From Escherichia phage UPWr_E1, in sequence record PP418985.1: DNA of 64,000 bases; one strand, written 5' to 3'. The position numbers and the translations under genes are program-made. The notes below the pieces were generated by a model, which searched no databases, was not told the origin of the DNA, and was given only the letters and a program-made list of their open reading frames with translations. Below, piece by piece: positions 3,855 to 59,687 of this stretch (the first letter of the stretch is position 1; the number at the start of each line of letters is the position of its first letter).

Positions 3855-3932
3855 TAAGAGTGTAAAAGTTGTGAAATATTTGTTATGTTTTTAATTGTAG
3901 TTCCGTTATGCAATTAAAAAAGAGGATATTAC

Positions 3933-6476
3933 ATGTCTAACAAAATCAATGTATTACATCAAACAGAAGGTCCGGTTTATGGTTCCGTTGGTCGTCCACT
4001 TCTGTTAAAGATTGTTGTCAGTACAGCAGATTTTAAAGATTTTATAGCAGAATGGAAGCTGAACGGTGTAAATGTGCCAGCAGAACAAATTTCCGACGCG
4101 GATCAGTCTCTGTATATTGAGGAAATGCGAGAAAATCAATTTGGTACATATACATGTCACATTAAACTGAAAGACGAACCACAGGTCGGTGTAGATATTA
4201 AGCCTATTCTTGTACAGCGTAGATTTTTTATTGCACCGCAAGATCAGTCTCCGACGTATATTAAAAAACGAATCGGCGAAGAATTAACCCTATTCGCAAC
4301 ACCAGCAATTGAACTAGGTCAACACCCAGAGTTTCAATGGTATCGAAATCATATTCCGGTAGAACCAGAAAAAATCGAGGACAACCGAACCGTTCATATT
4401 GCCCGTGTTGGTCTTATTGATTTTGGCAATTATACGTGTCGTGTTACTGTCCGTGGTGAACCAGCATCACAATATTGGATTAATCCAATTATTGTAGAAA
4501 AGAATGATACCCCTCCTGTAGTGCATCTTAGCGAAGAATATCCTAGCTCTATTACAGTAGCAGAGGATTCAGCGGTACATCTCAATGTACTTGTTACATC
4601 AGATGATAAAGTATCGCCTATTGAGTATACGTGGATTCATAACGGTAGGATTGTTATCGAAGAAAACGGAAACTCTTTGGCAATTCCGCATATTCGAAAA
4701 GATCAGGAAGGTATCTGGCGTCTTGAGGTAAAACAAGGTGACACTACGGTGTATTCTAAAGATTGTCATATTGAGGTTGATAGTCAACCATTCTTTAGGA
4801 TCACACGTCAACCGCAAACTCTTAACGTGTCTGGCGGTGCTTTGGGTTTATTCAGCGTTGATTATAGAACAAACTATTCACCTGTAAAGATCCAGTGGTA
4901 TCGTAAAAAGAATACAGAACAGGAGTTTACACCAATTGTAGGTGAGACTAATAAAGATCTTCATATTACACCAGCTACTACTGAATTAAACCGAGCACGC
5001 TACAAAGCTCGTATCACGTATGGCACAGACCAATACAGAGATTCAGAAGAAGCTGAATTGCTAGTAGGTGAAGCATTAACTATTAGAATCACCAAACAAC
5101 CACAAGCTCTACAAAACGTCCGAGTTTCTTCCTCACAGACGATCACTTGTGAAGCTGAAACAAACTATGAACATTATCGCTTAGATTATCAGTGGTATAA
5201 AGATAACGAATTAATGCCAGGCAAAACATCTAATGTATTGCACTTCTCATCAATCAAAAAGACAGATGAGGGGCAATATAAGTGTATTGCATCAATGGGT
5301 ATTTCTGGTCATCGAATTACCGCAGAATCATCACCAGCACAGGTGACAGTAGACAATTCAAAGGCATCACTGACTATCACTAAACAGCCAACTGGTGCAA
5401 CAATTCGCACTGGTGGGTCGTGGTCTATTTCGGTCGAAGCAACATCAAACGATGCACTACCGATTCGCTATCGCTGGTTTAAAGACGGCGAAGATCTATT
5501 CCCACAAGGCGTTGAACAAAAAAACGTTTACGGTGAAGACCATGCTCAACCTGATTCGACTGGTGTATATACTTGTCGCGTTTCGGTTGGTTTTGGTGAT
5601 CACCGAGCGTCTCAAATGTCACATCCAGCAAGGGTGCTAATTAGCGATAATGTGGAAATTGTGCCGAATGACTTACAGGTCACCGCACATCCTCATGATA
5701 ATGACGTTAAGTATAATCAGCGTGTTATCTTAACAGCAAGATCTCAAAATAGCATCGGGTTAAAACCACATATTCAATGGAAAAAGGATGGTGTTGCTAT
5801 TCCGGGTGCAAATTCAGAGACTTTAGTCATTGAGCACGCGAAACCATTGGATGCAGGGGTTTACACCGCAGATATTACCGCAGCAGAAAAAACGGTAACA
5901 ACCAATCCGGCTACAGTTACTGTAGCAGAGCACAGCAATATTAATATCTTAAAACATCCAGTGGATGTGGTTGCAAAAGAAGGACAAACCACCGACATTG
6001 TATTGGAAGCTCATGCGGAACATTCTGACGGTGAAACCGAAGTTAGTTATCAGTGGCATAAAATTAAAGATGGCGTAGACACTGAAATAAGAGATGCAAC
6101 AAATAAAACTTTAGTTATCCCTCATGCACAGATCAGCAAGCAAGCTCATCAAGCGACCTATTACGCCGAGATAAAAGAAGAGAATGGACACGTTAAACAT
6201 AGCGAAAAAGTTCGAGTGGTGTTTACTACCGCGAAATTAAAACGCTATGTTCACCCGATCCCGTGGCGACGTACATCCTTCCAGTATCAAGGCTATTGGG
6301 TTATGGATGAGATTGATCGCTGTAATCGTGAAGGGCTTAACTGGCTTGAGGACTTTACGCACACCAAATATCCAGAAGAGATCGAAACTATTGCTGCATC
6401 ATTGCATCATTATTCAAATACTCATGTATTAGAATCTCGTAATGGTTATCTGGTTGATGGTACTCAACTATTTTAA
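3933..6476 (+). CDS. hoc: Hoc-like capsid decoration protein with ~7-8 Ig-like repeats and a shared C-terminal domain
   Basis: AGAGGA RBS; repeated W-Y/F-[KR]...G-x-Y-x-C Ig-like motifs (GNYTCRVTV, GQYKCIAS, GVYTCRVSV); C-terminal RYVHPIPWRRTSF...ESRNGY; hoc position. Confidence 0.7.
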   Translation: MSNKINVLHQTEGPVYGSVGRPLLLKIVVSTADFKDFIAEWKLNGVNVPAEQISDADQSLYIEEMRENQFGTYTCHIKLKDEPQVGVDIKPILVQRRFFIAPQDQSPTYIKKRIGEELTLFATPAIELGQHPEFQWYRNHIPVEPEKIEDNRTVHIARVGLIDFGNYTCRVTVRGEPASQYWINPIIVEKNDTPPVVHLSEEYPSSITVAEDSAVHLNVLVTSDDKVSPIEYTWIHNGRIVIEENGNSLAIPHIRKDQEGIWRLEVKQGDTTVYSKDCHIEVDSQPFFRITRQPQTLNVSGGALGLFSVDYRTNYSPVKIQWYRKKNTEQEFTPIVGETNKDLHITPATTELNRARYKARITYGTDQYRDSEEAELLVGEALTIRITKQPQALQNVRVSSSQTITCEAETNYEHYRLDYQWYKDNELMPGKTSNVLHFSSIKKTDEGQYKCIASMGISGHRITAESSPAQVTVDNSKASLTITKQPTGATIRTGGSWSISVEATSNDALPIRYRWFKDGEDLFPQGVEQKNVYGEDHAQPDSTGVYTCRVSVGFGDHRASQMSHPARVLISDNVEIVPNDLQVTAHPHDNDVKYNQRVILTARSQNSIGLKPHIQWKKDGVAIPGANSETLVIEHAKPLDAGVYTADITAAEKTVTTNPATVTVAEHSNINILKHPVDVVAKEGQTTDIVLEAHAEHSDGETEVSYQWHKIKDGVDTEIRDATNKTLVIPHAQISKQAHQATYYAEIKEENGHVKHSEKVRVVFTTAKLKRYVHPIPWRRTSFQYQGYWVMDEIDRCNREGLNWLEDFTHTKYPEEIETIAASLHHYSNTHVLESRNGYLVDGTQLF

Positions 6477-6482
6477 TATTAT

Positions 6483-6502
6483 TGGTCGCCCTTCGGGGCG
6501 AC
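6483..6502 (+). other. stem-loop GGTCGCCC-TTCG-GGGCGACC between the two hoc-like genes (no T-run)
   Basis: perfect 8-bp stem with UUCG tetraloop; lies inside the ORF-track N-terminal extension of the next gene. Confidence 0.5.
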
Positions 6503-6520
6503 CTTAACGGAGTTATTTTT

Positions 6521-7753
6521 ATGGCATTTACAGTAGCACTAAAATCAAATAAAAAATGTTTCCTTGCTGGCGATACATTTAAATTAACGGCTACATTAGC
6601 TGGGGTGGAAGATGGTCCGGTCCCATCAAATGTTACCTATGCATGGACTAAAAATGATCAGCCAATTGAAAATGAATCAAATGTATTAACGGTCTCTAAC
6701 GCAACAGCCGAGAGCGCCGGAAAATATAAAGTATCCGTTACTGACACAGACACACAAGAAGTGGTAGAATCTGCGGTTGTGTCAATGGCAGAAGCAGAAT
6801 TAGTAGTTAAAATTAATCATCCATCTAGCTACGTCGCATTCGATGAGGCGGTAGAATTAACAACTACGGTTTCATATTCAACCGGATTTGCACCGTCTAG
6901 CAATTACCAGTTGCATTATAAATGGGAACAAGATCAAACAAATTTAAACCATAGCGAAAGCACATTATCGATCAGCAACTTCGTCGATGACAACAATGGC
7001 GTTTATAAGGTTACTGTATGGGGCGAGTCAGAAACATCAGCGGACAGCGCCAGTGTTAAACTTGCAGCAATCTCTATATCTGTAGTTGAAGATGTACCAC
7101 TGGCAAAAACCGTCGCAATGGGTAAACCGATCACACTACCTTATCGCACGATGGGTGTTTCTATCGGTGACACGTCAGGTCTTCCGGCATTATCAACTAA
7201 ACAGTCATGGTATTTGCAGCGAGAAGGACAACCGCGCCCGACACTGATCGGGAGTGAGGTTGGGGAGGCATTGGAAGGGTTTTCTATCATGCCTAACGGC
7301 TATTTGCACAAAGAAGCTGCAACAATGGACGACACCGCTAACTTTTGGTGTATCGTAGAGTTGCTTCAAGAAATTGACGGGCAGCCAGTACCAATCGAAG
7401 AAAAAGGTAGCTCTCATTGCGCACTGGAAGTTGTAGAATCACTTCATAAGATGTTCCGGTATGTGCACCCGATCCCGTGGCGCAAAACTTCGTTTATCTA
7501 TATTGGATGGTGGGTATTCGACGAGATCGTTAAATTCAATGAGGCAGGGTTAGAATGGAGAAACCGTGAAGTTTACGAGGATAGCAAATATGCAAGCGAC
7601 ATCGAGACGATCGCGGCAGCGGAAGAAAAATATAGTGATTGCACTTGCATGGAATCTCGCAATGGTTTCATGTATCAGTCCAAAGAGTTCCATAAACTGG
7701 ACCGAGAGACATTAGAGCGTGTCCTGCGCATTCGTGAAACGCCTCCTGCTTAA
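6521..7753 (+). CDS. Hoc-like paralog (shorter Ig-like array, same C-terminal domain)
   Basis: GGAG RBS then ATG 6521; Ig-like motifs (GKYKVSVTD, GVYKVTVWG); C-terminal FRYVHPIPWRKTSF...ESRNGF, paralogous to 3933..6476. Confidence 0.65.
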   Translation: MAFTVALKSNKKCFLAGDTFKLTATLAGVEDGPVPSNVTYAWTKNDQPIENESNVLTVSNATAESAGKYKVSVTDTDTQEVVESAVVSMAEAELVVKINHPSSYVAFDEAVELTTTVSYSTGFAPSSNYQLHYKWEQDQTNLNHSESTLSISNFVDDNNGVYKVTVWGESETSADSASVKLAAISISVVEDVPLAKTVAMGKPITLPYRTMGVSIGDTSGLPALSTKQSWYLQREGQPRPTLIGSEVGEALEGFSIMPNGYLHKEAATMDDTANFWCIVELLQEIDGQPVPIEEKGSSHCALEVVESLHKMFRYVHPIPWRKTSFIYIGWWVFDEIVKFNEAGLEWRNREVYEDSKYASDIETIAAAEEKYSDCTCMESRNGFMYQSKEFHKLDRETLERVLRIRETPPA

Positions 7754-7764
7754 TGAAATCTATC

Positions 7765-7795
7765 AGCCATCCTTCGGGGTGGCTTTTTTGTTTTT
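7765..7795 (+). terminator. rho-independent terminator
   Basis: GCCATCC-TTCG-GGGTGGC followed by TTTTTTGTTTTT. Confidence 0.7.
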
Positions 7796-7800
7796 AGTGC

Positions 7801-7828
7801 TTGACAGTGTGATTTAGTGGCTTATAAT
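7801..7828 (+). promoter_or_regulatory. sigma70-type early promoter (TTGACA-16-TATAAT)
   Basis: consensus -35 and -10 hexamers directly after the terminator; leader ACACACATC resembles the repeated leader of the 49-64 kb modules. Confidence 0.6.
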
Positions 7829-7948
7829 GACACACATCAACAGGGCGTTACCCTATGAGGAAAATATTATGAATATGGGGTTGAAAATGGCTTTAATAAC
7901 TGTTACTGTCCTATTCGTTGTTGTGTTTATGAATGTATGAGGTGAAGT

Positions 7949-8146
7949 ATGAATGAGATTGTACGATTGATCAAAGAAACACCAATCGAGATGTATTTTC
8001 TGGCTTTGGTTGCAACAATGGTCTATCAGCTAGTCGCATGTCATGTATGGAAATCAGAAAATGCGTTTATCCGGTTTTTTGGTACTGTCATGATCCAGTT
8101 TCCGGTACTGATCACTATCCTGTTAATCGTCAATGAGGCGAAGTAA
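7949..8146 (+). CDS. small hydrophobic membrane protein
   Basis: GAGGTGA RBS; 65 aa with hydrophobic core. Confidence 0.5.
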   Translation: MNEIVRLIKETPIEMYFLALVATMVYQLVACHVWKSENAFIRFFGTVMIQFPVLITILLIVNEAK

Positions 8147-8421
8147 TGGACAAGAAAACAGCGTTAATGGTTTACATGCTACGCGAAGACCACGGTCTTA
8201 ATTTTGTTGATATTGCTAAAAAGATTGGCGGGTTCAGCGGACAAGATGCGGCTAAGGCATGGTTGATGGTAAAAGATGCACGAGAGGCTTACGCCAACCG
8301 TGAAAAGGTTGTTTATCGTAAACACCACATCAACAAAAAATTTAAAAATAAAGTTCAAAAACGTGTTGACAAGCCAAATAACACTGTTATAATGGACGCA
8401 TTCAAACGGGCAATGTCCTGA
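8146..8421 (+). CDS. basic hypothetical protein (possible HTH)
   Basis: ATGA start/stop overlap with upstream ORF; 91 aa, Lys-rich C-terminus. Confidence 0.5.
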   Translation: MDKKTALMVYMLREDHGLNFVDIAKKIGGFSGQDAAKAWLMVKDAREAYANREKVVYRKHHINKKFKNKVQKRVDKPNNTVIMDAFKRAMS

Positions 8422-8467
8422 TTTGTAATTAATATTCTGAATAACTAATCAATAGAGGTGACTAATT

Positions 8468-8905
8468 ATGAAATTCCGCAAAAACCACGTAGCAATGAAA
8501 AAAGCAATGTTTGAAGCATTCAAAGCAGTTGATCAGGGCGGTGTTACTCTGATTGAGCAAATTAATGTTGATGTTTGGCAGTCTCCGGCGATCACTTGCT
8601 CACGTCTGGCGACGGCTGGTCTTCTGAATGTTCACAGCTCTACAGCATACGACGAAGCATTGCAAGTTATTAAGGCTTTCGCTGGCGACGTTACCAGCAA
8701 GTGGGTCTATGAGAATAAAGGTGAAATTGCGGTTGCTCACGTAGGCAACAATATCCAGATGGAAATCAAGATTAAGGAAGGGTCTAAACGCAATCAGATG
8801 CTTGTTCGCTTCCAGCCATACAAAACTAACGTAGTGCCGGATGATCTGGTCATCTCTAAGAGTAATGTTACCATTCGCCGAAATCAGATCGTTATCAACA
8901 AATAA
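8468..8905 (+). CDS. hypothetical protein
   Basis: AGAGGTGA RBS; 145 aa; followed by a strong terminator. Confidence 0.6.
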   Translation: MKFRKNHVAMKKAMFEAFKAVDQGGVTLIEQINVDVWQSPAITCSRLATAGLLNVHSSTAYDEALQVIKAFAGDVTSKWVYENKGEIAVAHVGNNIQMEIKIKEGSKRNQMLVRFQPYKTNVVPDDLVISKSNVTIRRNQIVINK

Positions 8906-8914
8906 TTAACATTA

Positions 8915-8938
8915 GCCGTCCTTCGGGGCGGCTTTTTT
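8915..8938 (+). terminator. rho-independent terminator
   Basis: GCCGTCC-TTCG-GGGCGGC followed by TTTTTTGT. Confidence 0.75.
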
Positions 8939-8992
8939 GTATATATCATTAACATAATTTTAGTTTACATATGCACATTATTAATACAGTTT

Positions 8993-12344: not shown

Positions 12345-14063
12345 TTATTGTGCTTGCTCTGGAAGTGCTTGTATATTTTCTATAGTAGCACCCCATTTAA
12401 CGGCATTTAAACGAGCTTTGTGCATATCGTCTTCTCCGACTATTGCCGCAAAACCCTTTTTAGCGTGGAAATTCGCCCATGTGTTATATGCTAGTGCACC
12501 TACGCGTTTTGCTGTGTCGTGTTCAACTTCATCAACCATCAGCATTGTGCGGAAAGGTGCAAATGCTACATCTGGGTTATCGTCTTGTGTCCATGAACCA
12601 CCATTAAACGACACCTGCCACCTGAACATCTCACCAGACGGAATTTGATTAATTCTCAACTTTAGAGATCTTGTTTTCTGGTTTTTCTGAGTTACGTCTA
12701 GTGGAACCTGATATCTAGCCGCTTGTCGTTCTCTACCATCATTCATCCTATGCCATGCGGTAACAACAAGCATAACCGGAATTGTGTTTGATGTTTTAAT
12801 AAAACTAACATCAACTAAAAGTTCCATATCATAGCTACCAGATTTAGGCGCAACCCACCAATGGTCGGCATCAGCTTGTCGATCTGGCTCTTTAATCTGT
12901 GGTGTGCATCCATAGTTATCATGAATGACATACTTCCACGGAATGTAAAAAGCACCACCGCCAGTTCCTGGATTTGTAACTTCGAGTAGATTTTGTGCAG
13001 TGGTAAACACGCTTGACACGCGAGGGAAAGCATAAATGGTAGCACCACCAGTGTGATCGCTGATCTGTAACCATTCGGTCCATCGATCAGTTCTCTTTGT
13101 ATAGGAACGGTGATACATTACGCCATCAATGCTTGTTGCGATCTGCAATACATGATCTTTACATGCATGAACATCTACAGAACCATGTGTTTGTGTTCCA
13201 TTTGGACGGTTTGCCGACCCCTCAAAGTAACAGAAACGGCCTTGTTTAGTCAAGGTGTTTAGGTCTAGCGTTTCTGGCGAAATTTCCGGTAGACGTTTAC
13301 CCAGACTGGTTAACATCGCCTCCTGATCACCATTTAAACCACCGCCACCACTTCCTTCCCCGCTTTGAGAGTTCCACTCACGCCATGCACCATTGTGTCG
13401 GATGCGAGAGTAAACACCACCATCAATAGAACGGACCACTTGAAGAATGCTACCATCGACGACATATACATCTGCGGACCCCTTATTCGCCATCATTGGA
13501 GGTTTGCCATAGGTTGCATCACCTACCGGATAGCGTCCGGGTGATGTGGTTACATCCAGATTGTTAATTGGATTCGTCGTAGTCCATTTTACCTCAATTG
13601 CAGATAGACGCTGCGCAACGTTCGCTAATACTTCTGGTACTGGAAATACAAGAGATTCCTGTGTTCCGTCTGAGTACGTGACTTCTAGAGTCCAGTTGCG
13701 ATCGTCCTCGGACAAATTCGCTTCGATTCTAGCAATGCCACGACCATTTTCGCCCTTCTCACCAGGAATACCCTGTTCACCCTGAATAACCCAGGTCATA
13801 TCGACCCATTTTGATTTATCGTAGGGAGATTGTGCTGTTTTACCAGTCCATAATTGGAGTTTTTCGCCACAAACAATAATTGTTTTTAGTCTTTCCAATT
13901 CTGGAAAATGTTCGGTAAAATATTCATCCCTAGCTTCTTCATTTTCGAAACGGTGAGTATTTTTAATTCCGCTAGGTACGTTAGTTCCGATCTGAATACC
14001 ACCACCAGAACAACCACCACTCACGGAACCAGCATTAATGATAGCTTGTGGATTTAGCTTCAT
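12345..14063 (-). CDS. fiber-like protein with collagen-like Gly-X-Y run and two knob-like repeats
   Basis: GGGGGT RBS then ATG 14063; GEQGIPGEKGENGRG; two repeats of ...DG-x-x-Y-x-R...W-x-E-W (SIDGGVYSRIRHNGAWREW, SIDGVMYHRSYTKRTDRWTEW) typical of pyocin/tail-fiber knob domains. Confidence 0.75.
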   Translation of the reverse strand: MKLNPQAIINAGSVSGGCSGGGIQIGTNVPSGIKNTHRFENEEARDEYFTEHFPELERLKTIIVCGEKLQLWTGKTAQSPYDKSKWVDMTWVIQGEQGIPGEKGENGRGIARIEANLSEDDRNWTLEVTYSDGTQESLVFPVPEVLANVAQRLSAIEVKWTTTNPINNLDVTTSPGRYPVGDATYGKPPMMANKGSADVYVVDGSILQVVRSIDGGVYSRIRHNGAWREWNSQSGEGSGGGGLNGDQEAMLTSLGKRLPEISPETLDLNTLTKQGRFCYFEGSANRPNGTQTHGSVDVHACKDHVLQIATSIDGVMYHRSYTKRTDRWTEWLQISDHTGGATIYAFPRVSSVFTTAQNLLEVTNPGTGGGAFYIPWKYVIHDNYGCTPQIKEPDRQADADHWWVAPKSGSYDMELLVDVSFIKTSNTIPVMLVVTAWHRMNDGRERQAARYQVPLDVTQKNQKTRSLKLRINQIPSGEMFRWQVSFNGGSWTQDDNPDVAFAPFRTMLMVDEVEHDTAKRVGALAYNTWANFHAKKGFAAIVGEDDMHKARLNAVKWGATIENIQALPEQAQ

Positions 14064-14070
14064 ATAATAA

Positions 14071-14379
14071 TTACCCCCGTTTAGCAAGATACACGGTTAC
14101 AGTAGAATCATTGGAAACAGATTTTACTTTTGCCCTAATAAATGACCATAATGTTTCAAACGCTCCACCATCAGTTGCATATTCATTACCATCAGCTTTC
14201 AATTCTGAAATAGTGAACCAACCTTTGCCATCTAAGGAACCTTCTAACGAGGCTTCCGCAATGACTTTTTGCCCTTCCCGTGCACCCTCTACGGTCATCT
14301 GTACTGTCATGTGCGTACTATGAACGCAGTTTACCGACGCGGAAACGGCTGGAGTTTTGGTCTTTATAAGTGTGTGCAT
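14071..14379 (-). CDS. hypothetical protein (102 aa), first gene of the fiber-like module
   Basis: AAGGGGAG RBS; preceded by late promoter TATAAATA and the gp23 terminator. Confidence 0.6.
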   Translation of the reverse strand: MHTLIKTKTPAVSASVNCVHSTHMTVQMTVEGAREGQKVIAEASLEGSLDGKGWFTISELKADGNEYATDGGAFETLWSFIRAKVKSVSNDSTVTVYLAKRG

Positions 14380-14417
14380 CTAATTTTCGCTCCCCTTAGA
14401 ATATAGGCTTGCAACCT

Positions 14418-14425
14418 TATTTATA
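14418..14425 (-). promoter_or_regulatory. T4-type late promoter TATAAATA (fiber-like module)
   Basis: tatttata on plus strand, 39 nt upstream of the ATG at 14379. Confidence 0.6.
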
Positions 14426-14440
14426 ACGGGATATAATACG

Positions 14441-14470
14441 CAAAAAGGGAAGACCCTTTCGAGTCTTCCC
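14441..14470 (-). terminator. rho-independent terminator downstream of gene 23
   Basis: GGGAAGAC-tcgaaag-GTCTTCCC followed by TTTTTG on minus strand. Confidence 0.7.
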
Positions 14471-14540
14471 TTTGGAATTAACACTTTACACTGTCATAAG
14501 GTTTATGATAAGTCGGGCATTGCACCCGACCGGAGTTTAA

Positions 14541-16139
14541 TTAGCAACCTTTAACCCATACACGGCGGAAGTATGCGTTTTTACCTACGCTGTCTTTGCT
14601 CAACATACCGGAGGTGATGCGAGCGGACGGTGCCTGGGTTTTGCTGTCTGCAAACGGGTTAATACCGATGCCGTAGCGAGTCTTGAAGCCCAGAACCGGG
14701 TGGAAAGACTGCGGATCGGTTGCACGCAGCGGAGTCAGAGCAACATACGGCGCATAGTAGATACCAGCATCCATTTCGTTGTCGCCTTTGTAGCCTACGG
14801 TGAAGTAGTCCTGACGAGCATACTGGTCGATGAATACTTTGTACTTACCAGCCAGAACACCAGCGAAAACAGCTTTAGTGGTGTCGGTATTCAGACCTTT
14901 TGCAGCACCCTGCATAGCAACACTGATACCCTGATCAGCAGAAGCCAGAATGTTTACAACGTTACGGGAAGCGATAACAAAGTTACCAGCACCGCGACCA
15001 GTCTGACGAGCGATTTCAGCAGCTTCTTTGTCGATCTGGTAGATCAGAGATTTGAAGGATTCACCAGCCCAACGAGCACCGCGAGTATCGATCGGGTCTT
15101 GCAGGTCAAATACACCAGCTTTAGAACCAACGGTCTGAGTCATACCAGTCTTACCAACCTGTGCGGTAAAGTTGATAACGTCAACGATTTCACGGTTGAT
15201 TTCCAGCAGAACTTCGTTAGCCAGGATAGCATTCAGTTCAGCGTCAGCATCCATACCGTGTACAGCACGCAGATCCTGCGCAACTTCGATAGAATAACGA
15301 GCTTTCAGTTGGCGAGATTTCGCTTCAACAACCTGTTTGTCAATACGCATCGACATTTCAGCCCACGGGTTATTGCTGGAACCGTTAAAGCCTTCCTGAA
15401 TTTCGGCAATGGAAGTAGCCATACCGAAAGCGATTTCAGCCAGTTTACCTTCTTCCATCAGCTTCATGACCACTTCATCTTCGGATTCATCACCTGATTT
15501 CTGCGGAGTTACTGCGCTAGAAGTTACGTTTTGCAGATATGCAATACCAGTGTCTGCAAACGTGTGATGTACAATGTCTCCCGGTTGGATCTGGGTAGAT
15601 AATGCCAGTTTAGCGAATGCAGTACCAGTAGGAGAACCAGTCGTTGCATTTTTTGCTGCCAGAGAGCTATGGAACACATCTGGCGCATACATCGGGTGGA
15701 ATGCTTCACGAACATTTTTAGGATTACCACCAGCCAGCGGGTCTGGACCGTATACAGAACGGATTGCAAAGATCTGGCTAGTCGGGGTGCTCATAGGCTG
15801 AACGCCACAAATATCAAATGCAATCAGGTTAGGAATAGCACGGCGAACCATACCGATAACAGCCGGACCTACGTTAGTGATTGCACCGCTAGTCTGACCT
15901 GCCGCAATCTGGGATGCGTCGTAACCGTGGTCGCCAGCAACTTCGGCTTCGGCGATAAAACCACCGAATGCTTCAACAACTTTTTCATCCTTATAGATCG
16001 GATCTACAGCAAAATCCGCTTCCTGAGATTCCAGAATTTTAGCAACCAGTTTCTGCTTAGACGCAGTTGCGATTTCCGGCAGTTTTTCGTTCTCCAGCAG
16101 CGGGGACCATTTTTCCATCAGTTCTTTGGTAGTTTTCAT
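14541..16139 (-). CDS. 23: major capsid protein gp23
   Basis: 532 aa; long identical blocks with recalled T4 gp23 (RRAIPNLIAFDICGVQPM, IDKQVVEAKSRQLKA, GARWAGESFK, YFTVGYKG...DAGIYYAPYVALTPLR). Confidence 0.95.
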   Translation of the reverse strand: MKTTKELMEKWSPLLENEKLPEIATASKQKLVAKILESQEADFAVDPIYKDEKVVEAFGGFIAEAEVAGDHGYDASQIAAGQTSGAITNVGPAVIGMVRRAIPNLIAFDICGVQPMSTPTSQIFAIRSVYGPDPLAGGNPKNVREAFHPMYAPDVFHSSLAAKNATTGSPTGTAFAKLALSTQIQPGDIVHHTFADTGIAYLQNVTSSAVTPQKSGDESEDEVVMKLMEEGKLAEIAFGMATSIAEIQEGFNGSSNNPWAEMSMRIDKQVVEAKSRQLKARYSIEVAQDLRAVHGMDADAELNAILANEVLLEINREIVDVINFTAQVGKTGMTQTVGSKAGVFDLQDPIDTRGARWAGESFKSLIYQIDKEAAEIARQTGRGAGNFVIASRNVVNILASADQGISVAMQGAAKGLNTDTTKAVFAGVLAGKYKVFIDQYARQDYFTVGYKGDNEMDAGIYYAPYVALTPLRATDPQSFHPVLGFKTRYGIGINPFADSKTQAPSARITSGMLSKDSVGKNAYFRRVWVKGC

Positions 16140-16172
16140 GTTCTTTAAACCTTGTTTGTTGTTAACCTAAAG

Positions 16173-16180
16173 TATTTATA
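16173..16180 (-). promoter_or_regulatory. T4-type late promoter TATAAATA (gene 23)
   Basis: tatttata on plus strand 34 nt upstream of the gene 23 ATG. Confidence 0.65.
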
Positions 16181-16198
16181 AAGTAGATTTGAATTACA

Positions 16199-16993
16199 TT
16201 AGATGAAATTCAGGTAGCGGGATACGCCGGAATCTACAGTTGCCTTTTTCTCTGATTCTTCGACAGCTTCTGCAATAACATTCAGCTTGTCGGCATCAGT
16301 ATTTAGTGATTCTTCAATCTTCGCTGGTTTGTCTTCTTTCTTAGCAACCATTTCGACAATTGCAGTTAATTTCTTATCGAAAGTTTCGCTATATTCCAGA
16401 CCTTCAATCAGCGCGGTTACTTTTTCTTTCTGAGTATCGGAAAGATCACGAGTGCTTTCATTGATCGCTTGTTCGCGCTTCATACCACGAATTTCGCTTT
16501 CAAGTTGCAGTTTGGCATCAAAGAGTTCAGAGGTTTTTTCTTTTTCTTCTTTGAGTGCTTCGTCAAGTTCAGCAACAACGTCTACAGATTCTTCCGGTAC
16601 TACAACATTGTGAGTAACGAAAACATCTTTCAGAGAACCAATCAGGGATTCGCACAGATCCGCTTTAATATTACGGGTAACGGCTTCTTTATTTTCTGCC
16701 AGCCATTTAGCGCCTAAGTGATTCAGGAATTTATCCGCATCTTCGTACAGTTTGGTTTCAATCTCGGTGCGTGCTTCTTCGACCTTTGATTCTACCAGTT
16801 CATCGGCTTTAGCGGCGATTTTTTCAATGTGGCTTTCTGCCAGAGCAACAGCATTAGCTTTCACCGCTTGAGCGTAGATAGTACCAAAATTTTCTTTTAC
16901 TTCCGGCGACAGTTCGACGGATTCAAACAGGTCATCGAGAGCAACGTCTACGGTGATCTGTTTTGCTTCTTCGAGCAGCATTTCTTTAAGCAT
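16199..16993 (-). CDS. 22: prohead core scaffold protein gp22
   Basis: 264 aa, acidic coiled-coil; N-terminal MLKE..L..EA; VVPEESVDVVAE block as in recalled T4 gp22. Confidence 0.9.
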   Translation of the reverse strand: MLKEMLLEEAKQITVDVALDDLFESVELSPEVKENFGTIYAQAVKANAVALAESHIEKIAAKADELVESKVEEARTEIETKLYEDADKFLNHLGAKWLAENKEAVTRNIKADLCESLIGSLKDVFVTHNVVVPEESVDVVAELDEALKEEKEKTSELFDAKLQLESEIRGMKREQAINESTRDLSDTQKEKVTALIEGLEYSETFDKKLTAIVEMVAKKEDKPAKIEESLNTDADKLNVIAEAVEESEKKATVDSGVSRYLNFI

Positions 16994-53813: not shown

Positions 53814-54002
53814 ATGGCGTTTTATCTATGGTTGCTTATAGTATGCTTTGTAATGGGTTTATGCTTCTATACTGGCGTATTCTGTTTTGTCGCCTGGATA
53901 GACGGCGGATTCTCTAATATCATTTTGCTTGCCGGATCAATTGCCTCGTTTCTGTTGATATGGCTTTTTTCTTATTTGTTTGGTGAATGGGGTTTATTAT
54001 GA
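53814..54002 (+). CDS. small membrane protein
   Basis: GGAGGA RBS; two hydrophobic segments. Confidence 0.5.
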   Translation: MAFYLWLLIVCFVMGLCFYTGVFCFVAWIDGGFSNIILLAGSIASFLLIWLFSYLFGEWGLL

Positions 54003-54178
54003 ACAAATATATGTTTTGGGCGACCCTTGCCTATGTTGTGATTGCGGTAGTCTGGGGATTCTGTGTTATTGTCGCTTCTCTGATCTGGTGGGAATCACTT
54101 GGCGCGGGTTGTCTTATTAGCGGCGCATCATGTCTTATCACTGGCGTGATTGTTGGTTTTCTTATTTGGGAGGATTGA
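53999..54178 (+). CDS. small membrane protein
   Basis: ATGA overlap with upstream ORF. Confidence 0.5.
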   Translation: MNKYMFWATLAYVVIAVVWGFCVIVASLIWWESLGAGCLISGASCLITGVIVGFLIWED

Positions 54179-54180
54179 CA

Positions 54181-54396
54181 ATGGTTTTCTTCGGTCTTAT
54201 TATAATGGTGCTTAATGTCATTTGTGGCGTTGCTATGTTAGCTATGGCCTTTACTGTTCCTATGTCTGTTGACAGCGCCGCATCCGTAGGTGTGTTGGGA
54301 ATTGTAAACCTGTTTACTGCCCTAGCATGTTGGATCACCGGACGCGATGAGGTAATGTATTACTTTTATAAACGTAAACAGAGAAAAGGAAAATAA
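54181..54396 (+). CDS. small membrane protein
   Basis: GGGAGGA RBS then ATG 54181. Confidence 0.5.
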   Translation: MVFFGLIIMVLNVICGVAMLAMAFTVPMSVDSAASVGVLGIVNLFTALACWITGRDEVMYYFYKRKQRKGK

Positions 54397-54397
54397 T

Positions 54398-54589
54398 ATG
54401 AGATTTGCATTTGGTTTTACCGTGATGTTGATTATTGCTCTGAGTATGTGTACCGGAATGCTTGTATTTGGTCTTGCAAACGGGTTTAGCATTTATAATA
54501 ATCAGTGGGTTGATTGGGGAATGGTTGTCGTTAATGCGATCCTGATTGGTGCTAATACAAGAACTCTATGCAGGATCGCCGGAATCTAA
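54398..54589 (+). CDS. small membrane protein
   Basis: GGAAAA then ATG; hydrophobic. Confidence 0.5.
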   Translation: MRFAFGFTVMLIIALSMCTGMLVFGLANGFSIYNNQWVDWGMVVVNAILIGANTRTLCRIAGI

Positions 54590-54617: not shown

Positions 54618-55007
54618 ATGTTTAAATTATCTCAAAGAAGCAAAGATCGGCTTGTTGGTGTGCATCCTGATCTGGTAAAAGTCGTTCATCGTGCATTAGA
54701 ACTGACTCCGGTCGATTTTGGTATTACAGAAGGTGTACGTAGTCTCGCAACGCAAAAGAAATATGTTGCGGAAGGTAAATCTAAGACTATGAAATCTCGT
54801 CATCTTCACGGTTTCGCGGTTGATGTTGTAGCGTATCCGAAAGATAAAGATACATGGAACATGAAATATTACCGCATGATCGCTGATGCATTTAAACAAG
54901 CTGGTCGAGAATTGGGTGTTCCTGTTGAGTGGGGCGGGGATTGGACTAGTTTTAAAGATGGTCCTCATCTACAATTGCCACACAGCAAATACCCAGATCC
55001 AAAATAA
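54618..55007 (+). CDS. peptidase M15-type L-alanyl-D-glutamate peptidase (endolysin-like), no signal peptide
   Basis: zinc-site motifs SRHLHGFAVD and WGGDW...DGPHLQL as in VanY/T5-Lys-type peptidases. Confidence 0.75.
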   Translation: MFKLSQRSKDRLVGVHPDLVKVVHRALELTPVDFGITEGVRSLATQKKYVAEGKSKTMKSRHLHGFAVDVVAYPKDKDTWNMKYYRMIADAFKQAGRELGVPVEWGGDWTSFKDGPHLQLPHSKYPDPK

Positions 55008-55069
55008 AATATTAACCATCAACGGGGAGACAATCTAAGGATCTCTCCCCGTTCACTGGAGACTTGACA

Positions 55070-55555
55070 ATGAATATTGATGTAAAATTAGAAAGTAAAG
55101 ATTTGATTTATGCTGCATGTGTTTCTGCCGTAGATGGCATCATAGAACGCCGTAAGCGACGCAATTTTGCTGATGACCTAGATTCCATCGTCTCAATCAA
55201 TTTAGGGCGTCAAACAGGGCATACAGACGCTACAATCAAGTTATATGACCATTATACGCGAAAAGGATACAGTGTCTTTATCGTTTCGACAACGCGGGAA
55301 CATGTCAAAACGATCCGAGATCGCGGTCGCGGTGAAAATGTAAATATTTCAAATGTAGATTGTACGTCGATCCGAACTTTCCTGAATCCTATTACATGGC
55401 GAGGTCGTCGGCTTGACAAAACAATCTTTATCCTAGATACTACCATGCGCGGATTTACTGACAGCGTATTGCAGTTTTTAGAATTAAATCGACTTAGTGT
55501 TGGAAGGGGTAGTGTAGAAGACCAACCTATTTTCATTGGCTTAGGCATCAACTAA
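55070..55555 (+). CDS. hypothetical protein (162 aa)
   Basis: GGAG RBS then ATG 55070. Confidence 0.55.
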   Translation: MNIDVKLESKDLIYAACVSAVDGIIERRKRRNFADDLDSIVSINLGRQTGHTDATIKLYDHYTRKGYSVFIVSTTREHVKTIRDRGRGENVNISNVDCTSIRTFLNPITWRGRRLDKTIFILDTTMRGFTDSVLQFLELNRLSVGRGSVEDQPIFIGLGIN

Positions 55556-55690
55556 TGAAAAATAAAGATAGCGTAGCTCGTCGATTCCGTGCTACAATCA
55601 ATAAGAATCGTAAAGTCCAACCTGATAAACTCTATGGGGTTTTGGTTGGAAAAGTTAATGACGAACGTCCTGATCTATAAGAGGTGAATT

Positions 55691-56107
55691 ATGGAATTTA
55701 AAGCAATTCAAATCATGAAAGGTGAGCATAAAGGTACTATTATTGGTGGACATTTCGCGCCTATGATTCTGGTATCAGAACCGAAAGCACTGATCGGCGC
55801 TAAAGTAATTGTTAGTAAAACTTTCGCAGAAGACCATGTGATCACCGCAGAAGACGTAGATTCGCTGGCACTGCACACAACTAGCTTCCGTCCGGTGATT
55901 GTAGATAATGGTGCTCCTGTTGTCGAAGGTGGTCAGCACCTAAATGTTAACGTATTGTTACGAGAAATGTTACTTGACGCGGTTGAACATCCTGAGAAGT
56001 ACCCGCAGCTTACAATTCGCGTTTCTGGTTACGCAGTGCGCTTCAATAGTCTGACTCCAGACCAGCAGCGTGACGTTATCGCGCGTACCTTTACCGAATC
56101 TCTCTAA
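55691..56107 (+). CDS. grcA: autonomous glycyl radical cofactor GrcA/YfiD-like protein
   Basis: C-terminal [12 protein letters not shown]...[38 protein letters not shown] nearly identical to recalled E. coli GrcA, including glycyl-radical motif RVSGY. Confidence 0.85.
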
Positions 56108-56116
56108 TTTTTCATC

Positions 56117-56150
56117 AAGCCAATCCAAAAAGGGTTGGCTTTTTCTTTTT
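56117..56150 (+). terminator. rho-independent terminator after grcA
   Basis: AAGCCAA...TTGGCTT stem followed by TTTTCTTTTT. Confidence 0.55.
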
Positions 56151-56193
56151 ATGATGTTATGATGCAATCTCTTAATCAATTGAGGGTTTAATT

Positions 56194-56892
56194 ATGCATA
56201 CAATGGTTAAAATGGTCTTCGGATCTCACTTATACGGCCTTGATACTGAAAATTCAGATAAAGATTATCGTGGTATCTTTGTTCCGACTGCGAAAGAAAT
56301 TATCTTAGGATCGATGAAAGAACACTATGACCAAAGCACTAGCGGTCAAGGTATCAAGAACACCAAAGACGATATTGACGTTAATATGTTCAGTCTAAAA
56401 CGGTTTATTAATCTGGCATGTAAAGGTGATATTGGCGCTATTGATATGGTGCACGCGCCTAGTAACATGTTGATTGAATCCTCCAGAGAATGGGAATACA
56501 TCCGAACACATCGCGATAAATTCTATCATGTTGGGATGTGGGGTTTATCTGGTTATCTCAAAAAGCAGGTAGTCAAATCTGAAAAGTATTTCAGTAACTG
56601 GAAAGATCTTTCTCATGCTCTGCGTGTTGGTTATCAGCTACTTGAAATCTATCAGACAGGTGATCTACAATTCCCGCTCGCGCGACGTTCTTCTATTTTA
56701 GCGTGTAAGTTAGGAGAAAGAACCTTTGATAATGTGCGGGAAGAATTGAAAGATCTCTACGAACGTGTTAAACTCGCGCGTGAAGAGGCAAAGAAAAACG
56801 GTATGCCGGAAGAACCGGATGTTGACTTTTGGAAAGATTTATTAGAATATATTCATCTGACCGTTGTTCTGGAACACTATACCCGTGGTTAA
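56194..56892 (+). CDS. Pol-beta-superfamily nucleotidyltransferase-fold protein
   Basis: FGSHLYGLDTENSDKDYRGIF fits the G[SG]-x9-13-D-x-D nucleotidyltransferase signature; 232 aa. Confidence 0.55.
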   Translation: MHTMVKMVFGSHLYGLDTENSDKDYRGIFVPTAKEIILGSMKEHYDQSTSGQGIKNTKDDIDVNMFSLKRFINLACKGDIGAIDMVHAPSNMLIESSREWEYIRTHRDKFYHVGMWGLSGYLKKQVVKSEKYFSNWKDLSHALRVGYQLLEIYQTGDLQFPLARRSSILACKLGERTFDNVREELKDLYERVKLAREEAKKNGMPEEPDVDFWKDLLEYIHLTVVLEHYTRG

Positions 56893-56913
56893 TTAATATA
56901 GGAGATTAATAAA

Positions 56914-57108
56914 ATGCAAGTTTATACCAATAGTAATAAAGGCAATGATATCACACCGGGAAAGATGTATGATTTTACCCCAGCACGAGACGACGAACAT
57001 CCACCGACCATCGGATATATTGAAGATGATGCGGGGTTTCGTATTACGATCCTTCTTGATGGTGGATGTTCTCATCTTCGCGGTGATCATTGGGAGTTAG
57101 TACCATGA
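56914..57108 (+). CDS. small protein, paralog family member 1
   Basis: KMYDFTP ... DGGCSHLRGDHWELV. Confidence 0.5.
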   Translation: MQVYTNSNKGNDITPGKMYDFTPARDDEHPPTIGYIEDDAGFRITILLDGGCSHLRGDHWELVP

Positions 57109-57350
57109 AATATGTAATTGCACCTTATAGTAACCGCAAGTATATTACACCGAATACACTGTATGAATATACACCACATGAAAGATTTGCGAATAGTGGT
57201 TATATCCGTGATGATAAGGGACACCAGATTTTTATTTGCCTCAAAAATTGTGCACACTTAGACGGTCGAACATGGACACTGGTCGAAGAACCAAAACAAC
57301 CTGAGAATAAAGGTCTTTGGAACGCAATTAAAAAATTCTTGAAAAAGTAG
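57105..57350 (+). CDS. small protein, paralog family member 2
   Basis: ATGA overlap; TLYEYTP ... KNCAHLDGRTWTLV. Confidence 0.5.
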   Translation: MKYVIAPYSNRKYITPNTLYEYTPHERFANSGYIRDDKGHQIFICLKNCAHLDGRTWTLVEEPKQPENKGLWNAIKKFLKK

Positions 57351-57379
57351 TTGACACACATGTTCGGGGGTAGTAATAT
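57351..57379 (+). promoter_or_regulatory. PeSL-like early promoter module 6
   Basis: TTGACA-17-TAATAT; hairpin GGGGG-tagtaatata-CCCCC; leader CATCGAAACAACAAAGGAG. Confidence 0.55.
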
Positions 57380-57410
57380 ACCCCCATCGAAACAACAAAG
57401 GAGTATTAAA

Positions 57411-57749
57411 ATGAGTGTTAAAGAAGTATTTGTTTATACTGACTATGACGGGTGCGCCTATCTCACTGCCGGAAAACTTTACCATTGTGAGATTATTCAT
57501 GGTACGCTAGGTCGAATTATGTGCGATCCGATTACAAAATTGTGGAAAAACAATCCTAGTGAGCGAGAAACTATTATTAACCTAGATTCAGACGGTTGTT
57601 CACATTTGGACTATAGAAAATGGCATATCGTGACACATGATGCTTATGGTATTCATCTTGCTACTAAAGAATTAACTATAGAGAAATTCAAGTTTAAAGA
57701 AATCCCGTTTGTATACTGGCTTCGCAATTTGTTTAAGAAAGGAGAATAA
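57411..57749 (+). CDS. small protein, paralog family member 3 (duplicated module)
   Basis: KLYHCE ... SDGCSHLDYRKWHIV. Confidence 0.5.
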   Translation: MSVKEVFVYTDYDGCAYLTAGKLYHCEIIHGTLGRIMCDPITKLWKNNPSERETIINLDSDGCSHLDYRKWHIVTHDAYGIHLATKELTIEKFKFKEIPFVYWLRNLFKKGE

Positions 57750-57750
57750 A

Positions 57751-58173
57751 ATGGAAACAATTAACGTACATGTTCGCCGTAGCAAGCTGCGCAGATTCTT
57801 CGAAACTGAAATGCGTAAGACTAACGCACAAATCAAAGAAAAGTGCTTGAATAATGGTTACGGTGAGTATATTTTCATTCGCTTTAGTCCGCATATGATC
57901 GACCGTCTAACCGACCGCCATATCGATGAACATAAGACAATGGAACTATTCAATAAGGTAGAAACTCGTTTGCCGGAGATCTTCGACTTCCTGAAAATGG
58001 AAGACCGACCTAATCGATTAGAAATCACTGACGGTAACATGTGGATCGGGATGACAGTAGACCTAATTGAAGACGGTAAGCCATATCACGGTCTATGCTG
58101 TCGAATGATTATAGAGAATCCAAAACGACTGGCGGGTAAAATGTCGGCTGTTGTTTTGAAAGTGGACCAATAA
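57751..58173 (+). CDS. hypothetical protein (140 aa)
   Basis: GGAGAA RBS then ATG 57751. Confidence 0.55.
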   Translation: METINVHVRRSKLRRFFETEMRKTNAQIKEKCLNNGYGEYIFIRFSPHMIDRLTDRHIDEHKTMELFNKVETRLPEIFDFLKMEDRPNRLEITDGNMWIGMTVDLIEDGKPYHGLCCRMIIENPKRLAGKMSAVVLKVDQ

Positions 58174-58195
58174 TGGAGATTGGTTAAAATAATGC

Positions 58196-58224
58196 TTGAC
58201 TTTCTGGTGATAGGGCTATATTAT
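58196..58224 (+). promoter_or_regulatory. sigma70-type promoter (TTGACT-17-TATTAT)
   Basis: upstream of the secreted transglycosylase gene. Confidence 0.5.
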
Positions 58225-58258
58225 GGAATCAGAAAGTTAAGCCAAACAGGAGAAATTA

Positions 58259-58849
58259 ATGTTAAAAGTTCTAAAAGCGATAGTATTGAGTCTGTCACTA
58301 GCCGTTGGTGCTACACACGCATCGACTAGCGCACCGATCAAAAAAGCGCCGATAGACAACTTTACAGCACACCAACTAGATAATTTACATTTCGCCTATC
58401 AATATGGCGAACAATTCGAGAAAAGCGGTAAGTTGAAAAATGACCATCCGAATATTCGCTATGACGGAAAGGGTTTAGGCCACATCCTGGCGGGTATCGC
58501 ATGGCAAGAATCAAGCGCGGGTGCAAACTTAGCACCAAAGAAAAATCATCATGCTTATGGATTATTTCAAAATTACCTTAAAACGGTGAAAGCGAAAAAT
58601 GCAAAGCGCGGTGTTAAAATGAGTGATCGCCAGACTATCAAATTTATCATGAATCGCGAGGTTTCTGCATTCTACGCGATGGATGAGTTAGCATACTGGC
58701 TGGATGTTCGAAACGGTAATATCCGACTCGCGCTAGCTTCTTACAATGCAGGATGGAACTATAAAGCCGGTTTAGGTTATGCTGATGACGTACTAAAAAA
58801 GGCTAACCATCTAAAGAGTAAAGGCATTCTTAAAACTAAACGCTATTGA
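58259..58849 (+). CDS. secreted lytic transglycosylase (SLT-domain) protein
   Basis: signal peptide MLKVLKAIVLSLSLAVGATHA; SLT motifs AWQESS...YGLFQ and YNAG. Confidence 0.7.
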   Translation: MLKVLKAIVLSLSLAVGATHASTSAPIKKAPIDNFTAHQLDNLHFAYQYGEQFEKSGKLKNDHPNIRYDGKGLGHILAGIAWQESSAGANLAPKKNHHAYGLFQNYLKTVKAKNAKRGVKMSDRQTIKFIMNREVSAFYAMDELAYWLDVRNGNIRLALASYNAGWNYKAGLGYADDVLKKANHLKSKGILKTKRY

Positions 58850-59231: not shown

Positions 59232-59687
59232 ATGATTATTGATACTGTAAAGGGCGATCTCATCGCCCTGTTTAAACAAGGAAACGGTCATTTAATTCAT
59301 GGTTGTAATTGTTTTCATACTATGGGCGCTGGTATTGCTGCAAAGATCGCGAAAGAGTTCCCGCAAGCGTTAGAGATTGACAAGCAAACTTCTCGCGGTA
59401 AGGTAGAAAAGCTGGGTGGGTTTAGTGTCTGGACGCATCAAGTTAATGGTTATAACTGGTGCGGGGTGAATCTCTATACCCAATTCCGACCGGGTCCAAA
59501 TGCTGAATATGGTGCTATCCTGAAAGGATTTGAGACTATCAATGATGTTTTTGAAGGTGCTATACAGCCTTTCTATATTCCTAAAATCGGTTGCGGTATC
59601 GGTGGCCTTGAGTGGGAATGTGTAGAAGAGATCATTAATATTGCTACTCCAGACATTAACATTGTGGTGGTTGAATATGACAAATAA
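59232..59687 (+). CDS. macro-domain-like protein (putative ADP-ribose binding/processing)
   Basis: LIHGCNCFHTMGAGIAAKI and IPKIGCGIGGL resemble macro-domain motifs (VNAAN..GGGV.GAI and P.IG.G..G); tentative. Confidence 0.4.
   Translation: MIIDTVKGDLIALFKQGNGHLIHGCNCFHTMGAGIAAKIAKEFPQALEIDKQTSRGKVEKLGGFSVWTHQVNGYNWCGVNLYTQFRPGPNAEYGAILKGFETINDVFEGAIQPFYIPKIGCGIGGLEWECVEEIINIATPDINIVVVEYDK

Follow-up and report, generated by a model that had tools for sequence, protein, structure and literature searches.

RlaP proteins (Pfam PF10127, described there as 'RNA repair pathway DNA polymerase beta family') are nucleotidyltransferases (NTases) whose activity was reported in a recent preprint (Carruthers, Fatma & Huang, bioRxiv, December 2025; PMC12776372). 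The enzymes of Pseudomonas fluorescens and P. aeruginosa add one to two nucleoside monophosphates (NMPs) onto RNA 3'-OH ends, using any nucleoside triphosphate (NTP) and also dATP. They prefer Mn2+ or Co2+ and are inactive on 3'-phosphate ends, DNA and E. coli proteins (PMC12776372). The 5' half of a nicked-tRNA mimic is favored, and when RlaP acted before ligation, aminoacylation was partly regained by a tRNA lacking one anticodon-loop nucleotide (PMC12776372). The same study places NrdC.11 of phage T4 in the RlaP family, in cluster 5 of a sequence similarity network (SSN) with the Pseudomonas enzymes in cluster 1a, and terms it 'of unknown function' (PMC12776372). Phage RlaPs have been predicted to put back, prior to ligation, the nucleotides removed by RloC-like nucleases (jumbo-phage survey, PMC7824862). 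Here we describe the nrdC.11 gene in a 64,000-nucleotide stretch of DNA from Escherichia phage UPWr_E1 (PP418985.1), hereafter the window. The gene encodes an RlaP-family protein, and on balance we favor RNA 3'-end NMP addition in phage tRNA repair as the best overall explanation of its function.

Family assignment and catalytic center

The open reading frame (ORF) singled out in an earlier sequence-only reading of the window is confirmed by the ORF list (Table 1). Its product matches PF10127 with 52.9 bits against a gathering score of 23 (E = 5.6e-14), with residues 7-191 aligning to positions 24-198 of the 249-position hidden Markov model (HMM), and it matches PHROG 388 ('nucleotidyltransferase') at E = 1e-78. 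A HMMER search, exhaustive over 1.84 billion cluster representatives, yielded 3,553 relatives at E<=1e-3, of which 177 reached E<=1e-30, and PF10127 was present in 120/120 homologs among the matches listed. Given the Pfam, PHROG and cluster-representative results, the nucleotidyltransferase match is not a product of chance. We also aligned a profile of the NrdC.11 clade with a canonical RlaP profile, which was built from Bacillaceae RlaPs plus two phage members and whose members match HMM positions 19-249 of 249. The hhalign comparison gave 99.9% probability and E = 1.8e-33; its 237 aligned columns cover query residues 1-227. The Pfam match and this full-length alignment together make RlaP membership secure for the NTase half as well as for the C-terminal half, and we regard the assignment of family (RlaP) and fold (DNA polymerase beta, or Pol-beta, NTase) as close to certain.

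The profile searches thus uphold the Pol-beta superfamily fold proposed by the sequence-only reading. The families it had offered, namely aminoglycoside nucleotidyltransferases (ANT), CD-NTases and MNT/AbiEii enzymes, found no match in Pfam, NCBIfam or PADLOC, and the actual family is RlaP. The NCBIfam search returned zero matches and the PADLOC search just one spurious match at E = 0.03; the query was likewise unmatched by AbiEii and CD-NTase (CBASS) defense-NTase profiles. Sequence searches of the PDB, run both with the protein alone and with the profile of its clade, retrieved nothing relevant, and no PF10127 member was detectable there.

The window is that of a Krischvirus, an RB49-like T-even phage: megablast of positions 55000-58500 returned 58 phage records with identities of 90-97%, every one of them a Krischvirus (RB49, Phi1, GEC-3S, ECD7 and others). 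The gene is already annotated. The product name 'nucleotidyltransferase' stands in RefSeq for RB49, Phi1, GEC-3S and ECD7, the orthologs of RB49, Phi1 and JS98 carry the name nrdC.11, and the RB49 entry adds the note 'similar to T4 tk.-11'. Judged by best hits, common PHROG and common gene name, the window gene is the Krischvirus ortholog of T4 nrdC.11. Shigella phage JK32 encodes the identical protein (100%), and identity is at least 95% in 58 records, i.e., in every Krischvirus record, while relatives less than 60% identical occur in ~1,555 further phage records. Codon changes relative to the RB49 and GEC-3S orthologs are 16-17 synonymous and 1-2 non-synonymous. The resulting ratio of non-synonymous to synonymous polymorphism (pN/pS) of 0.016-0.031 identifies nrdC.11 as a working gene under strong purifying selection.

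Residue conservation was counted over 154-156 diverse relatives, including distant members from Bacillus phages and mycobacteriophages. Conserved in at least 95% of them are G10, S11, Y14, G15, S21, D22, D24, P31, N56, D60 and D62 in the N-terminal part, and W100, K137, H141, R144, P161, K172 and G174 in the C-terminal part. The G-S...D-x-D residues, which the sequence-only reading had picked out as a catalytic signature and which lie in the peptide FGSHLYGLDTENSDKDYRGIF (residues 9-29), reach at least 98%, so that the acidic residues are indeed conserved in homologs. D84 is looser, being Asp in 143 and Glu in 9 of 156 relatives. G10-S11, D22-x-D24 and D62 correspond to the hG[GS], DxD and third-carboxylate signature of Pol-beta NTases. 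D62 lies at the start of the beta-strand 62-67, and for this reason we take it as the probable third catalytic carboxylate and metal ligand.

An AlphaFold2 model of NrdC.11, computed from a 44-sequence alignment, reached a mean predicted local distance difference test score (pLDDT) of 91.6 and a predicted template modeling score (pTM) of 0.87. In this model the N-terminal alpha/beta domain consists of strands 2-9, 24-30, 44-48, 62-67 and 93-96 and helices 68-76 and 80-86, and the all-helical C-terminal domain closes with a long helix (residues 210-230). In the crystal structure of PfRlaP, an N-terminal NTase domain is followed by a helical domain whose last helix packs back on the NTase domain (PMC12776372). 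The two-domain build and a long terminal helix are predicted for the phage protein as well. The protein had been described as a 'minimal' NTase without a recognizable partner domain. This does not hold, since the model has a helical domain in addition to the NTase domain, and residues ~98-230 are homologous throughout to the canonical RlaP C-terminal domain. In a library of predicted viral structures the same fold was found at TMq ~0.8 and ~20% identity in many phages (Bacillus phage G and Rheinheimera phage Barba19A among them) and at TMq 0.72 in Pseudomonas phage PaBG. Weaker matches of the same fold (TMq ~0.5-0.6) came from giant viruses and from baculovirus HE65.

Length of the Krischvirus form

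T4 NrdC.11 is 44-47% identical to the query over the shared regions and has the same PHROG, catalytic motifs and C-terminal domain. Each belongs to a Straboviridae phage and is encoded by an accessory gene of the early region. The two differ in position, the Krischvirus gene lying between vs.6 and regB and the T4-type gene in the mobD-nrdC region, and also in length: the T4 protein has ~336 amino acids (aa) with an insert, the Krischvirus protein 232 aa without it. The query accordingly aligns to T4-type proteins in two blocks and lacks ~95-105 aa, which in the latter lie between the GY...K helix and the DWK helix. In the model of a long form (P0017, pLDDT 87.7) the insert forms an alpha/beta subdomain of its own, in which helices flank three beta-hairpin elements.

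Short forms are contiguous with the Pfam RlaP HMM (residues 6-221 of P0002, for example, correspond to HMM positions 23-229), whereas T4-type proteins align to it just up to position ~142. It is therefore the long form that carries an insertion relative to canonical RlaP. Among the 150 closest cluster representatives, only P0002, P0142, P0152 and P0236 are short; the other 146 contain the insert. A rough neighbor-joining tree, with two distant phage members of canonical length as its root, puts the short forms within long-form clades at three distinct points, and the deletion junctions of these forms differ. On these grounds the Krischvirus form seems to have lost the insert secondarily and thereby returned to canonical RlaP length, a conclusion that we consider moderately firm because the tree carries no bootstrap support. 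Comparable losses have occurred independently in other lineages. An ancestral origin of the short form in the NrdC.11 clade, as its collinearity with the Pfam model had suggested, was rejected in view of the nested tree positions and the differing junctions.

Databases and literature already cover the gene, its family and its predicted role, given the RefSeq annotation, the Pfam family, the discussion of T4 NrdC.11 as an RlaP and the reported family activity, and these carry little weight as a discovery. The sole new detail is the moderately firm conclusion that Krischvirus NrdC.11 is insert-less secondarily and of canonical length.

The short form P0002 is 57% identical to the query and lies on a syntenic Krischvirus-like contig. 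On that contig (L004) a homing endonuclease gene of the HNH/NUMOD4 type (3951-4547) stands between the glycyl-radical and RlaP genes, where the window has none, and two small ORFs follow the RlaP gene at the place that three occupy in the window.

Possible role in RNA repair

Pseudomonas RlaP and the query have the same Pfam family, similar length, an NTase domain followed by a helical domain, and three conserved acidic residues. By analogy with the measured activity we think that NrdC.11 probably adds nucleotides at RNA 3' ends. We posit that the NTase domain would bind two divalent metal ions, probably Mn2+, together with an NTP through G10-S11, D22, D24 and D62, and that the basic conserved face of the C-terminal domain (K137, H141, R144 and K172) would form the other wall of the cleft and hold the RNA 3' end. 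The enzyme would then transfer one or two NMPs, untemplated, to the RNA 3'-OH.

A specific part in tRNA repair, argued by the same analogy, is a more tentative proposal, to which we give slightly less than even chances. In such a pathway a host anticodon nuclease would cut the tRNA, with RloC-type enzymes also excising a nucleotide, and the phage Pnkp (pseT) would yield 3'-OH and 5'-P ends. NrdC.11 would return the missing nucleotide to the tRNA 5' half, and Rnl1 (rnlA) would seal the break. Rnl1 is a 5'-P/3'-OH ligase. Since it needs a 3'-OH, as left by RlaP, the two enzymes would be compatible and the RtcB incompatibility discussed for the bacterial system (PMC12776372) would be avoided.

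Several observations are consistent with this pathway. The genome of RB49 (96% identity to the window) contains pseT and rnlA as well as a second kinase-like ORF. In P0118, a member of the NrdC.11 clade that is 39% identical to the query, the RlaP gene lies directly 3', on the same strand, of genes for a P-loop kinase, an HD phosphohydrolase-kinase fusion and an Rnl1-family ligase. T4 nrdC.11 can be deleted in the laboratory, and its dispensability fits, because an accessory counter-defense gene would be expected to be dispensable. The sequence-only reading had likewise named an anti-defense enzyme among its candidates, in agreement with what has been predicted for the RlaP family.

The P0118 contig (JGI 3300059473) carries a complete phage RNA-repair cassette at 3859-8954 with its main genes on one strand. 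It begins with a Zeta_toxin/AAA_33 kinase, followed by a small ORF of opposite orientation and an HD plus AAA_33 protein; after a further small ORF come the Rnl1-family ligase (PF09511), a pair of small ORFs and RlaP.

A number of points weigh against tRNA repair as the function of NrdC.11. A distance of ~75 kb separates the gene from pseT and rnlA in RB49; in the window, the vicinity of nrdC.11 is free of ligase, kinase and phosphatase genes, and RNA ligase and tRNA genes sought inside the window were not found. Among seven sampled neighborhoods of the NrdC.11 clade an RNA ligase was present in one (P0118) and in none of the other six, and the two chromosomal Bacillaceae RlaP loci that were examined have no ligase neighbor. 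Pseudomonas rlaP, by contrast, sits in rtcB-rlaP-rtcA operons. The activity was measured for Pseudomonas RlaPs, which belong to a different sequence cluster, and is carried over to the NrdC.11 clade by analogy; the canonical bacterial and phage RlaP relatives compared here are ~26-28% identical to the query. The query also lacks two near-invariant motifs found in the long form, K-Y-G-x-K-G-S-R and Y-G-E-R-A, and with the insert and K-Y-G-x-K-G-S-R lost, the substrate preference of the Krischvirus form could differ from that of the T4 type. In addition, Hailong HalB, an NTase that synthesizes DNA rather than repairing RNA, is among the nearest solved structures.

CCA-adding enzymes and other RNA terminal NTases are alike in principle, as there too a Pol-beta NTase performs template-independent addition to an RNA 3'-OH in the repair of tRNA ends (PMC7824862). 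They are, however, much larger and multi-domain, give weak Foldseek matches (E >0.1), and act at the acceptor 3' end, whereas NrdC.11 is proposed to act at an internal break.

The alternative closest to tRNA repair is a general tailing of RNA 3' ends, in which NrdC.11 would place one or a few untemplated nucleotides on fragments of host RNA or early-phage mRNA and thus serve RNA turnover or host shut-off. Its substrates could be, for example, products of RegB or RNases after dephosphorylation by Pnkp, and the tail could provide a toehold for 3' exonucleases or protection. Such a function would accord with the finding that the Pseudomonas RlaPs label total E. coli RNA in the rRNA and tRNA size ranges as well as RNA fragments, with their low NTP specificity (PMC12776372), with the location of regB in Krischvirus, ~0.8 kb downstream of nrdC.11 on the strand they share, and with the lack of linkage of nrdC.11 to pseT or rnlA in the genome. 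The proximity to regB is not conserved, however, as the Tequatrovirus gene lies in the mobD/nrdC region. RlaP adds just 1-2 nucleotides and prefers the nicked-tRNA 5' half (PMC12776372), and where RNA-related linkage exists in the clade it is to the ligase and end-healing cassette of P0118. We consider general tailing unlikely. It is less improbable than an ANT-like adenylylation of a metabolite or antibiotic or an MNT-like AMPylation of a protein target, to which we assign a small probability. The latter idea, which corresponds to the host-modifying or toxin-like enzyme of the sequence-only reading, draws on Foldseek against the PDB, where ANT(4')/kanamycin nucleotidyltransferase (KNTase) ranked first (E 5e-5) and HalB next (E 1e-4), both with TM-scores of ~0.4, and where an MNT antitoxin structure, which has the same NTase fold, appeared at rank 50 (E 0.16). 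By structure comparison the C-terminal domain also resembles HEPN/KNTase-C four-helix bundles, and ANT(4')/KNTase (PDB 1kny, 6un8) has the same two-domain arrangement of NTase and helical bundle as the query. Fold resemblance is the whole of the case, as neither a family-level sequence match nor a close superposition with ANT(4')/KNTase was obtained and no NTP_transf_2 (PF01909-type) Pfam match was found at E<=1. An MNT, moreover, is an NTase of ~100-140 aa encoded beside a HEPN toxin gene, unlike the 232-aa query with its fused helical domain, and the neighbors of nrdC.11 are the glycyl-radical cofactor gene vs.6 and small unknown ORFs. The 'toxin-like module' of the sequence-only reading finds no support: a partner antitoxin gene and a HEPN gene are both absent, and nrdC.11 is conserved in all 58 Krischvirus records.

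HalB is described as a bacterial defense protein that is paired with the HalA channel and makes Tyr-primed poly-dA. A HalB-like NrdC.11 would be a template-independent synthase of short (deoxy)oligonucleotides, possibly protein-primed, that act as signal or decoy and keep a Hailong-type DNA-gated effector, or another oligonucleotide-sensing defense, silent during infection. With HalB (PDB 9dbh/9dbi/9dbj) at 13% identity, the sequence relationship is undetectable, and the PDB sequence searches with the single sequence and the clade profile both miss it. The query has neither a HalA-like partner gene nor a conserved priming Tyr; the RlaP assignment is far stronger, and RlaP halts once 1-2 nucleotides have been added and leaves DNA acceptors unused (PMC12776372). 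Priming through Y229 was considered and rejected because Tyr is not conserved at this position: 14/156 relatives have it there, the column consists mostly of gaps, and in distant members Tyr is absent from the last ten residues. We therefore find a HalB-like synthase very improbable. A related proposal starts from the loss of the insert and of K-Y-G-x-K-G-S-R and from HalB as structural neighbor, and holds that the shortened NrdC.11 is an oligonucleotide synthase or RNA-end modifier which acts as decoy or silencer against an oligonucleotide-sensing host defense, rather than as a helper in tRNA repair. If true, this would make it a phage-encoded counterpart of a defense NTase, and we judge it just as improbable. 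The least credible explanation is that of a decaying remnant, a functionless deletion derivative of T4-type NrdC.11. Some ~100 aa are missing, including near-invariant long-form motifs, yet the pN/pS values and the high identity across all Krischvirus records exclude decay for practical purposes. The catalytic residues are all kept, the fold is confidently predicted, length and collinearity equal those of canonical RlaP, and insert losses have occurred independently elsewhere.

Krischvirus NrdC.11 is a compact test case for the predicted phage RlaP repair and for the contribution of the T4 insert. It makes a convenient construct because it is naturally minimized, of canonical length and confidently predicted, and because the phage also encodes Pnkp and Rnl1.

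Features of the locus and neighboring genes

Table 1. Coordinates of nrdC.11, its motifs and domains, its expression signals and the neighboring features in the window.
Feature	Position	Strand	Basis or detail
nrdC.11 coding sequence, RlaP-family (PF10127) Pol-beta nucleotidyltransferase	56194..56892	+	ORF list, 232 aa plus stop, ATG start
G10-S11, hG[GS] NTase motif	56221..56226	+	G10 100%, S11 98% of 154 relatives
D22-K23-D24, first two catalytic carboxylates (DxD), start of strand 2	56257..56265	+	D22 155/156, D24 154/156
D60-I61-D62	56371..56379	+	D60 Asp in 151/156; D62 Asp in 153 and Glu in 3 of 156
N-terminal Pol-beta alpha/beta NTase domain, aa 1-96	56194..56481	+	AlphaFold2 model
C-terminal all-helical domain, aa 98-230	56485..56883	+	near-invariant W100, K137, H141, R144, P161, K172, G174
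Junction between K128 and S129, site of the T4-type ~95-105 aa alpha/beta insert, absent here	56575..56580	+	alignments
Shine-Dalgarno sequence GAGGG	56182..56186	+	7 nt 5' of the nrdC.11 ATG, read from sequence
Intrinsic terminator of vs.6	56117..56151	+	10-bp stem, 5-nt loop (hairpin 56117-56141), then T-run
Candidate sigma-70-like promoter, TTGGCT-17-(TG)TATGAT	56135..56163	+	consensus scan, 9/12 matches, extended -10 TG; weak
Consecutive small ORFs, putative tandem membrane peptides	53814..54589	+	four or five ORFs, 62-88 aa
Endolysin	54618..55007	+	Peptidase_M15_4
vs.6, stand-alone glycyl-radical domain protein	55691..56107	+	PF01228, E = 1.5e-16
Small ORF downstream of nrdC.11	56914..57108	+	64 aa from ATG
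Small ORF downstream of nrdC.11	57105..57350	+	81 aa from ATG
Small ORF downstream of nrdC.11	57411..57749	+	112 aa from ATG
regB	57709..58173	+	PF10715, E = 3e-48
SLT-domain protein	58259..58849		signal-like N-terminus
Macro-domain protein	59232..59687	+	PF01661

The product of vs.6 resembles autonomous glycyl radical cofactors of the GrcA/YfiD type. The gene ends at its terminator, the hairpin of which is also annotated as a terminator in the GEC-3S record. The weak sigma-70-like site overlaps the tail of this terminator, is without annotation in GEC-3S and was not relied on.

Directly downstream of nrdC.11, three tandem small ORFs are paralogs of each other (34-42% identical). They have the common motif Y..T....I.L...C.HL....W..V and zero Pfam matches. 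The last of them is overlapped by the mechanical ORF of regB, which starts at a TTG; going by the RB49 and GEC-3S annotations (423 nt), regB would start at an ATG at about 57751. The Macro-domain gene, 2.3 kb downstream of nrdC.11, is the ortholog of RB49 tk.4 'A1pp phosphatase'. Macro domains process derivatives of ADP-ribose, among them those that arise when RNA 2'-phosphates are removed, and a link of this gene to RNA repair is therefore conceivable.

Upstream of vs.6, the endolysin is of the L-Ala-D-Glu / D-Ala-D-Ala peptidase type and not a T4 e-type lysozyme. The small ORFs just upstream of the endolysin gene are very hydrophobic and look like tandem membrane peptides.

Two further contigs with an NrdC.11-clade gene contain arrangements of their own. 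A 256-kb contig of jumbo-phage size (L008) carries at 12711-16921 a run of ~20 consecutive ORFs of 67-91 aa, each overlapping the next by a few bases, a long tandem array of paralog-like genes, with many small Lcl_C-domain ORFs nearby. A phage contig (L009) encodes Gad2-family and WGR-PARP_reg-PARP proteins (1053-2426 and 13362-14648), the genes of which lie near an anaerobic ribonucleotide reductase gene.

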